This document shows positions 15,001-18,000 of a stretch of DNA of 64,000 nucleotides, piece by piece. The position numbers were made by a program. Location of the stretch: the NCBI RefSeq assembly GCF_003334405.1, contig NZ_QOWM01000005.1; one strand, written 5' to 3'. The DNA is from Escherichia coli (GTDB lineage Bacteria; Pseudomonadota; Gammaproteobacteria; Enterobacterales; Enterobacteriaceae). Numbering within the stretch: the stretch's first letter is position 1; the number at the start of each line of letters is the position of its first letter.

Positions 15001-18000
15001 CGATCTCGATTACTCACCGTTTTTCCCGATGTTCAACTGCATGTTGATCGACCTGAAAGGCATGCTGACCCAGGGCTTTAAAATGGGGAACGCCGAGATT
15101 GAACCGCCGAAGTCGATCTCAACGGCAACCGCGGTAACTGCGCAGATTATTGCTCAGGTTGCCAGCCATATTTATGGCGGCACCACCATTAACCGTATCG
15201 ATGAAGTGCTGGCACCGTTTGTCACCGCCAGCTACAACAAACATCGCAAGACCGCAGAAGAGTGGAGCATCCCGGACGCAGAAGGCTACGCTAACTCTCG
15301 TACCATTAAAGAGTGCTACGATGCCTTCCAGTCGCTGGAGTACGAAGTAAACACCCTGCATACCGCCAACGGTCAAACGCCGTTTGTAACTTTTGGTTTT
15401 GGTCTGGGCACCAGCTGGGAATCGCGCCTGATTCAGGAATCTATCCTGCGTAACCGTATCGCAGGTCTCGGTAAAAACCGTAAAACTGCGGTGTTCCCGA
15501 AACTGGTGTTTGCGATTCGCGATGGTCTGAACCATAAAAAAGGCGATCCGAACTACGACATCAAACAGCTGGCGCTGGAGTGCGCAAGCAAGCGCATGTA
15601 TCCGGATATCCTGAACTACGATCAGGTAGTGAAAGTCACCGGTTCGTTTAAAACCCCGATGGGCTGCCGCAGCTTCCTCGGCGTGTGGGAAAATGAAAAC
15701 GGCGAGCAGATCCACGATGGTCGTAACAACCTCGGCGTGATCAGCCTGAACCTGCCGCGTATTGCTCTGGAAGCAAAAGGCGATGAAGCCACCTTCTGGA
15801 AGCTGCTGGATGAACGTCTGGTGCTGGCACGTAAGGCGCTGATGACCCGTATCGCTCGTCTCGAAGGCGTGAAAGCGCGCGTGGCCCCGATCCTCTATAT
15901 GGAAGGTGCTTGTGGCGTGCGTCTCAATGCTGACGATGATGTTTCTGAAATCTTCAAAAACGGTCGTGCGTCTATTTCGCTGGGTTACATCGGCATCCAC
16001 GAAACCATTAACGCGCTGTTCGGCGGCGAGCATGTTTACGACAACGAGCAGCTTCGCGCGAAAGGTATCGCCATTGTTGAACGTCTGCGTCAGGCAGTGG
16101 ATCAGTGGAAAGAAGAAACGGGTTATGGTTTCAGTCTCTACAGCACGCCGAGTGAAAACCTGTGCGACCGCTTCTGCCGTCTCGATACTGCTGAGTTTGG
16201 CGTGGTGCCGGGCGTGACCGATAAAGGTTACTACACCAACAGTTTCCACCTCGATGTGGAGAAGAAGGTGAACCCGTACGACAAGATCGACTTTGAAGCG
16301 CCTTACCCGCCGCTGGCGAACGGTGGTTTCATTTGCTACGGCGAGTATCCAAACATTCAGCACAACCTGAAGGCGCTGGAAGATGTCTGGGATTACAGCT
16401 ATCAGCATGTACCGTATTACGGCACCAATACACCGATTGATGAGTGCTACGAGTGTGGCTTTACCGGTGAGTTCGAGTGCACCAGCAAAGGCTTCACTTG
16501 CCCGAAATGTGGTAACCATGACGCCTCCCGTGTGTCGGTAACTCGCCGCGTGTGCGGATATTTAGGTAGCCCGGATGCACGTCCATTTAACGCCGGTAAG
16601 CAGGAAGAAGTTAAGCGCCGCGTTAAACATTTGGGAAATGGGCAGATAGGTTAATCTTCACTCTACGTTAAGCAAATGCCGGATGCGGCGTAAACGCCTT
16701 ATCCGGCCTACATTTGGCAACTGCTCCAGGCCTGATAAGACGCGACAGCGTCGCATCAGGCATTGATTACCGGATGCAGCCTACACGCGGACTGATAAGC
16801 CAGGCGAAATAATGAATTATCATCAGTACTATCCTGTCGACATCGTCAACGGCCCCGGCACTCGCTGCACCCTGTTTGTCTCCGGGTGTGTTCATGAATG
16901 CCCCGGTTGCTATAACAAAAGCACATGGCGGGTAAATTCTGGTCAGCCATTTACCAAAGCAATGGAAGACCAGATCATTAACGATCTGAATGACACTCGT
17001 ATCAAACGCCAGGGGATTTCCCTCTCCGGCGGCGATCCGCTGCATCCGCAAAACGTGCCGGATATTCTGAAACTGGTAAAACGCATCCGCGCCGAGTGTC
17101 CGGATAAAGACATCTGGGTGTGGACAGGCTATAAACTCGACGATCTCAACGCTGCGCAAATGCAGGTTGTTGATTTGATTAACGTACTGGTCGACGGCAA
17201 ATTTGTGCAGGATTTAAAAGACCCTTCCCTGATCTGGCGCGGCAGCAGCAATCAGGTGGTGCATCATTTGCGATGATAAGTTCCCTGTTACCTGAGTGCA
17301 GGCAACAGGGAAATGAGGAATTAACGATACTTCTGGTGATAGGCGTTGCGGGTCGTTTTCAGTTGCTCTGCGGCAGCCTGCGCTTCTTTTACTTTACCTT
17401 CATTTGCCAGCTTCAGCGCGTCGTCAATCTGACCAACCAGAATATCGAAACCGTGACGGAAGTCTTTCATTTCCGGGCTGTCCGGTGATTTATCTTCGAG
17501 CTTCGGCGGCGTTGCTTTTTGCGCATCCAGCGCTGCGGCGCGCATCTTCGTTAACGCGTCTTTGACTTGCGCCGCGTTATCGGCTTTTTCGACCACTTTT
17601 AAAGTGTCGTTGAGGGTTTCCATATTGTCTTCAAGATCAGCGGCAAACGACGCCGAACTGAATACCAACGAGGAGACTGCAAGAATAGCTAACAGGCTTT
17701 TACGCATTGCTCACTTCCTTTTTTATTTACACTTCATCCTTCACACTGCCTCATCGACGGCTACGCTCATTCGCCCGGGTCACGTACTGCGAGTACGCTC
17801 CCCGGCCCTCATTCACTTTCCGTCTCGATGCAGTGCGAATGATTTTGTGTAATTTTTTAGTTTATAGCGCGGCAGGTCGCGCCAGTTTTTTACTGCCCGG
17901 CGATTTTCATCTCCGGCAACAGCACAGAACCACACTGTATATTACTGCGTGTTTCAATATCGTTACCGACGGTGACAATATTGCGCCACATATCTTTTAA

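Follow-up and report, generated by a model that had tools for sequence, protein, structure and literature searches.

An intact cytochrome b562 gene (cybC) in an Escherichia coli locus of non-K-12 background

Escherichia coli K-12 carries a disrupted copy of cybC, the gene for the small, soluble periplasmic haem protein cytochrome b562, and this disruption is already published, having been known since the 1990s; what follows does not go beyond that literature. The disruption in K strains is credited to Trower 1993 in PMC13041623. CybC has been described as "cryptic in K-12 strains" and as expressed by non-K-12 strains (PMC4361602), and MG1655 cybC has been treated as a pseudogene (PMC3349551, PMC6945024), with a cybC knockout used as a neutral control in PMC6945024. 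A cybC reading frame lies within a 64,000-nucleotide stretch of E. coli contig NZ_QOWM01000005.1, which we refer to as the window. The locus raises the question of whether this copy is a functional allele, in what way it differs from the K-12 copy, and how much its state reveals about the strain background.

Integrity and identity of the cybC reading frame

The earlier note had placed a complete 128-aa precursor, with a signal peptide and the full mature sequence, at 17321-17707 and had given no strand. Re-translation reproduced these coordinates exactly, assigned the gene to the minus strand, and returned a precursor of 22 + 106 aa. The open reading frame (ORF) spans 387 nt including the stop codon, from the ATG at 17707-17705 to the TAA at 17323-17321, and its translation ends in RNAYHQKYR. 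No internal stop codons or frameshifts were found, and careful re-translation thus disposed of the hidden frameshift that the note had named as a possible objection. In the collinear strain ML35, cybC is annotated at the corresponding coordinates. The 651 bp comprising cybC and its flanks recur with 100% identity in several complete genomes, for which the PGAP annotation lists an intact cybC (WP_001232255.1). The parts of the gene and the other features of the window are collected in Table 1.

Table 1. Coordinates of cybC, its parts, and other features of the window
Feature	Position	Strand	Basis
cybC coding sequence, 128 codons + TAA	17321-17707	minus	re-translation; family and solved-structure matches
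Signal peptide, codons 1-22	17642-17707	minus	mature 1apc/256b chains begin at query residue 23
Mature cytochrome b562, 106 codons	17324-17641	minus	PDB alignment
Met7 codon (mature numbering)	17621-17623	minus	
His102 codon (mature numbering)	17336-17338	minus	
Polymorphic Thr35 codon (precursor numbering)	17603-17605	minus	
Polymorphic Val39 codon (precursor numbering)	17591-17593	minus	
26 bp present in the window and deleted in K-12, GTGAGCAATGCGTAAAAGCCTGTTAG	17689-17714	minus	alignment with MG1655
Putative Shine-Dalgarno sequence AAGGAA, 7 nt upstream of the cybC ATG	17715-17720	minus	read from the sequence
14-bp perfect hairpin between the convergent cybC and nrdG stops	17281-17312	.	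folding
Imperfect-palindrome intergenic repeat, pmbA stop to cybC Shine-Dalgarno sequence	17727-17852	.	inverted arms
Block of about 9.4 kb, ytfB to rplI, replaced in MG1655 by about 1.1 kb with yjfZ	47761-57201		

The encoded protein belongs to the cytochrome b562 family. It matched the NCBIfam equivalog NF011632 ("cytochrome b562") with 190.5 bits (E = 1.1e-56) over profile positions 1-127 of 127, the curated equivalog cutoff being 130 bits, and it matched Pfam PF07361 (E = 4.5e-33) over model positions 1-102 of 102. The mature chains of PDB entries 256b and 1apc (106 aa) align to residues 23-128, while PDB 9tmp_A, the full-length native protein, aligns to residues 1-128. These NCBIfam, Pfam, and PDB scores rule out a chance ORF. 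The signal-peptide boundary was set after residue 22, since residue 23 is where the alignment of the mature PDB chains begins. Residues 1-22 comprise an n-region (MRK) with two basic residues, a hydrophobic core, and S-F-A before the predicted cleavage site.

The mature protein is identical at 104/106 positions to the classic b562 sequence, that of the crystallized protein, which is itself identical to residues 23-128 of the REL606 protein. We take Met7 and His102 of mature b562 to be the axial haem ligands, in line with the established structure (PDB 256B). Both residues are present in the window protein and are invariant in an alignment of the REL606, K-12, and classic mature sequences. On the strength of this identity and of the solved 1apc and 256b chains, window CybC is predicted to adopt the four-helix-bundle fold.

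The closest well-characterized relative is CybC of E. coli B (UniProt P0ABE7; PDB 256B, 1APC, and 9TMP; REL606 WP_001232240.1), which likewise has 128 aa and a signal peptide identical to that of the window. The haem ligands, the pmbA-nrdG locus, the upstream repeat, and the Shine-Dalgarno sequence of E. coli B cybC are also as in the window. The two proteins are 98% identical and differ only by N35T and I39V (precursor numbering), both conservative and located in helix 1, and the window ORF shows nine nucleotide differences from the 128-codon REL606 ORF (locus L004, positions 22746-23132). The predicted mass of the mature apo-protein is 11,753.1 Da for the window and 11,780.1 Da for E. coli B. 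Residues 35 and 39 are natural CybC polymorphisms that have been used in MALDI to distinguish ST131 clades (PMC6561927). Window CybC corresponds to WP_001232255.1, which is common to ML35, strain 300709, and ECOL-18-VL-LA-PA-Ryan-0026; carriers of this accession share the protein exactly, although some are without the upstream repeat element. About 1,157 complete genomes contain an ORF at least 99% identical to that of the window; the members sampled from that group were 100% identical.

Taken together, we hold with high confidence that the window carries a functional cybC allele on the minus strand (17321-17707) in its normal position between pmbA (also tldE) and nrdG. By analogy with published work on the near-identical protein, cybC mRNA would be translated from the ATG at 17707 by way of the AAGGAA Shine-Dalgarno sequence, and the 22-residue signal peptide would direct Sec export and be cleaved after S-F-A (Ala22). 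The 106-residue mature protein would then form a periplasmic four-helix bundle holding one non-covalent haem b through Met7 and His102, and would act as a small one-electron carrier in the periplasm. For export, cleavage, haem binding, and expression alike, the argument runs from the literature and from near-identity: haem-loaded periplasmic b562 has been demonstrated for the near-identical B-strain protein (PMC13041623).

The K-12 lesion and its distribution

The statement in the earlier note that K-12 MG1655 carries a truncated cybC pseudogene agrees with both the reference annotation and our alignment. In NC_000913.3, cybC (b4236) is a pseudogene at 4459488-4459855, and the one structural difference at cybC between the window and either MG1655 or the K-12 derivative J53 is a 26-bp deletion in the latter two. 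The deletion takes out 7 nt of leader and 19 nt of coding sequence, namely the ATG with the 16 nt that follow it, so that K-12 lacks codons 1-6 together with the first base of codon 7; the MG1655 pseudogene feature starts at the first base past the deletion. In the K-12-type allele, AAAAAAGGAA is joined directly to CTATTCTTGCAG, whereas the window keeps all 26 bp between them. Inspection of the junction in the alignment found no repeated bases (microhomology) at the ends of the deletion; its placement is thus unambiguous, and no slippage mechanism is suggested. The remaining 368 nt of K-12 cybC align to the window without gaps and with 13 substitutions. The K-12 remnant carries A122S and Q125K, neither of which is found in the window, and it encodes the whole mature protein behind a signal peptide without its basic n-region (MRK).

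Annotation of the K-12 remnant is inconsistent between sources. PGAP-annotated K-12 derivatives list the remnant as an ordinary 121-aa "cytochrome b562" CDS that begins at an ATT (in J53, NZ_CP158674.1, at positions 1690-2055 of locus L002), in conflict with the curated MG1655 pseudogene and in a manner that hides the lesion. PGAP makes this call because, even without its start, the remnant reaches 186 bits with the NF011632 model. Automated K-12 records of this kind mask the lesion and could mislead a comparison that looks for an intact cybC in K-12 annotation, the outcome that the earlier note had named as fatal to its claim. Among the K-12-type records examined, none holds an identical or full-length cybC.

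The 121-aa PGAP call, the 186-bit score, and the retention of the entire mature sequence could also be read to mean that the K-12 allele is not truly dead and that its contrast with the window is overstated. Two in-frame starts are left in K-12 cybC: an ATT that follows the GGA core of the Shine-Dalgarno sequence by 3 nt and a TTG about 18-21 nt further on, which would yield products of 121 and 115 aa, respectively. We judge a live K-12 allele to be highly unlikely. The ATT is non-canonical and lies just 3 nt past the GGA core, the signal peptide has lost its basic n-region, the curated MG1655 record is a pseudogene, and K strains are stated to be without b562 expression (PMC13041623, PMC4361602).

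The distribution of the deletion was surveyed in 5,426 complete E. coli genomes. All of them (5,426/5,426) contain cybC sequence, each covering at least 80% of the ORF. A probe for the K-12 deletion junction matched 355/5,426 genomes, and the 40 junction carriers that were sampled all have names or genome sizes typical of laboratory K-12 derivatives (including MG1655, BW25113/BW2952, DH1, DH10B, TG1, C600, MC4100, J53, EC600, and NBRC 3301). Sensitive blastn of the start region retrieved the same 355 genomes at 74% identity, reflecting the 26-nt gap, while the other 5,071 matched at 90% identity or more with no deletion. A megablast search with a 44-mer from the start region had left 457 genomes unclassified; these were rejected as further deletions, since sensitive blastn showed them to be SNP variants. 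The intact start is therefore the near-universal state in E. coli. It is presumably also ancestral, because the cross-species equivalog profile includes the N-terminus.

Other exceptions were seen at the locus. In at least two genomes, NZ_OY754853.1 (locus L006, positions 462-3310) and NZ_CP037943.1 (locus L010, positions 662-3510), cybC is interrupted near ORF nt 78 by the IS66-family element ISEc22. This is an independent knock-out of the same gene at the same locus, in contrast to the uninterrupted copy in the window, and it fits cybC being dispensable. Split cybC ORFs occur in at most 114/5,426 genomes. Separately, NZ_CM135829.1, a 4.83-Mb record named "DH5alpha," contains the full 651-bp cybC locus at 98.6% identity and does not have the 26-bp deletion. 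Because K-12-type records show that deletion, this entry is probably mislabelled or a non-K-12 derivative.

Flanking elements and expression of cybC

In the window, cybC lies downstream of pmbA (tldE) on the same strand and is convergent with nrdG and nrdD. The order pmbA-cybC-nrdG-nrdD matches that of MG1655, REL606, ML35, and strain 300709. The hairpin between the cybC and nrdG stop codons is stable (dG of -23.3 kcal/mol; z = -6.8), and 0/200 shuffled sequences folded equally well. Its position suggests a probable role as a bidirectional terminator shared by the two genes, although it has no clear U-tract and was not called by a consensus terminator scan. Three terminator-like calls within 17200-17950 were discarded, as they lie on the plus strand, two of them inside the cybC ORF.

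Upstream, the space between the pmbA stop and the cybC Shine-Dalgarno sequence is occupied by an imperfect-palindrome repeat of about 126 bp. It may be an ERIC/IRU-like element; these are imperfect palindromes of about 127 bp that are intergenic, dispersed in several copies, and variably present among strains. Rfam covered the whole window and gave no match in or adjoining cybC, this repeat included. The repeat belongs to a segment that is polymorphic for presence and absence (about 17728-17866): the window, K-12, and REL606 have the repeat, whereas strains such as NZ_CP041392.1, which encodes an identical CybC protein, lack it. Complete genomes contain a median of 3 detectable copies of the repeat (n = 5,426). 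A copy at least 95% identical to that in the window was found in about 3,885/5,426 genomes and would correspond to the one at the cybC locus.

No sigma-70 promoter was found by a consensus scan of 17200-17950. The cybC promoter could be located inside the repeat or farther upstream; read-through transcription from pmbA is an alternative. Since no promoter-like site was called upstream and a polymorphic repeat sits immediately before the Shine-Dalgarno sequence, one could argue that the reading frame, though undamaged, is expressed weakly or not at all, either because this element of about 130 bp splits the gene from its promoter or because of some other barrier to transcription or mRNA stability. 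Comparison with E. coli B makes this extremely unlikely. REL606 matches the window in both the repeat and the upstream sequence, and B-lineage strains are rich in haem-loaded b562 and in cybC transcript (PMC13041623; PMC3446290). Native, red, haem-loaded b562 co-purifies with an anti-BRIL Fab from BL21-type strains and is gone in a delta-cybC mutant (PMC13041623), and the cybC transcript is much more abundant in REL606 than in MG1655 (PMC3446290). The presence of the repeat, at what is taken to be the cybC locus, in most of the surveyed genomes also speaks against a silencing effect. Because B-lineage expressers share the upstream region of the window, repeat included, expression from such a locus is supported, in keeping with our preferred reading of a functional allele.

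A more speculative proposal, which we regard as very unlikely, is that the polymorphic palindrome, found in about 72% of complete genomes and missing from the others, affects how strongly cybC is expressed or how stable its mRNA is or, alternatively, that the K-12 remnant is translated at a low level from the ATT or TTG to give a non-exported b562. If the palindrome did have such an effect, b562 levels would differ among strains with identical CybC proteins, and this would offer a handle on the physiological role of the protein.

Strain background and value of cybC as a marker

The earlier note had assigned the window to a lineage other than K-12, and comparison at the scale of the window bears this out. 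Identity to MG1655 is 98.57% across the 12 kb surrounding cybC and 97.2-98.5% in other parts of the window, the differences being scattered along its length. Besides the cybC deletion, there are three structural differences. The first is a block of about 9.4 kb that has a short replacement in MG1655 (Table 1); it encodes a TetR regulator, 3-ketoacyl-ACP reductase, sugar-phosphate isomerase, enoyl-CoA hydratase, CoA-transferase, FAD oxidoreductase, and TRAP transporter. Judged by position only, the K-12 ytfA pseudogene, which adjoins ytfB, looks like a remnant of the TetR gene. The second is the chpS-chpB toxin-antitoxin pair, located between ppa and ytfP in K-12 and absent from the window (site 28168-28297), and the third is ytfI, located between cysQ and ytfJ in K-12 and likewise absent (site 37958-37963).

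Among the non-K-12 strains compared, identity is 99.1% to REL606 over 39 kb and 99.5% to the collinear ML35 over 1170-50000. No complete genome exceeded 99.7% identity over the 22 kb tested (8000-30000). The alternative that cybC had been reinstated, through recombination or engineering, in a strain descended from K-12 would account for the shared gene order and for nothing beyond it, and its probability is practically nil: it is refuted by the identity of only 97.2-98.57% to MG1655, with differences throughout the window, the missing chpSB and ytfI, the block of about 9.4 kb where K-12 has yjfZ and the ytfA pseudogene, and the identity and collinearity with ML35. Identity to ML35 falls from 99.5% to 97.8% beyond position 50000 (50001-63962), a drop suggesting that recombination has made the source strain a mosaic.

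Elsewhere in the window, a yjgL-like gene (2-1739, minus strand) contains an in-frame TAG at codon 29 (1652-1654); the corresponding codon in ML35 and REL606 is TGG. Over 154-1004, this rare allele shares only about 83% identity with its ML35 and REL606 counterparts, and it contains a long tandem peptide repeat of the (Q/P)ELNN type; the gene is called "hypothetical" or "DNA-binding protein" in other records. A 51-mer around the TAG has a near match in 3/5,426 complete genomes and is identical in none. Rfam matches above the gathering threshold were obtained at 9645-9760, 19937-20014, 26177-26255, 35239-35281, 35361-35418, 38770-38892, and 58691-58775, none of them near cybC. The families matched (the mgtA Mg riboswitch, two REP-derived naRNA4 elements, ES036, STnc450, ES239, and the RpsF leader) are all expected for this region of E. 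coli.

The proposal in the earlier note that cybC serves as a strain-background marker holds in part. An intact copy excludes the K-12 lineage, but the marker is weak: because 5,071/5,426 genomes keep an undeleted start, an intact cybC says only "not K-12." The replacement at 47761-57201 and the absence of ytfI and chpSB are stronger discriminators from K-12 than cybC.

The intact cybC thus confirms a non-K-12 E. coli origin for the window, which amounts to little beyond bookkeeping for an ordinary intact gene, and it adds nothing to the question of b562 function, the physiological role of the protein being still described as unknown (PMC3349551, PMC6561927). The comparison does document the K-12 lesion precisely, as 26 bp that take in leader sequence, the ATG, and the 16 nt after it. 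For practical work, strains with an intact cybC produce native b562, and this protein is carried along when anti-BRIL Fabs are purified (PMC13041623). The Thr35/Val39 allele of the window predicts a mature mass about 27 Da below that of the B-strain protein, a difference usable in MALDI typing (PMC6561927).
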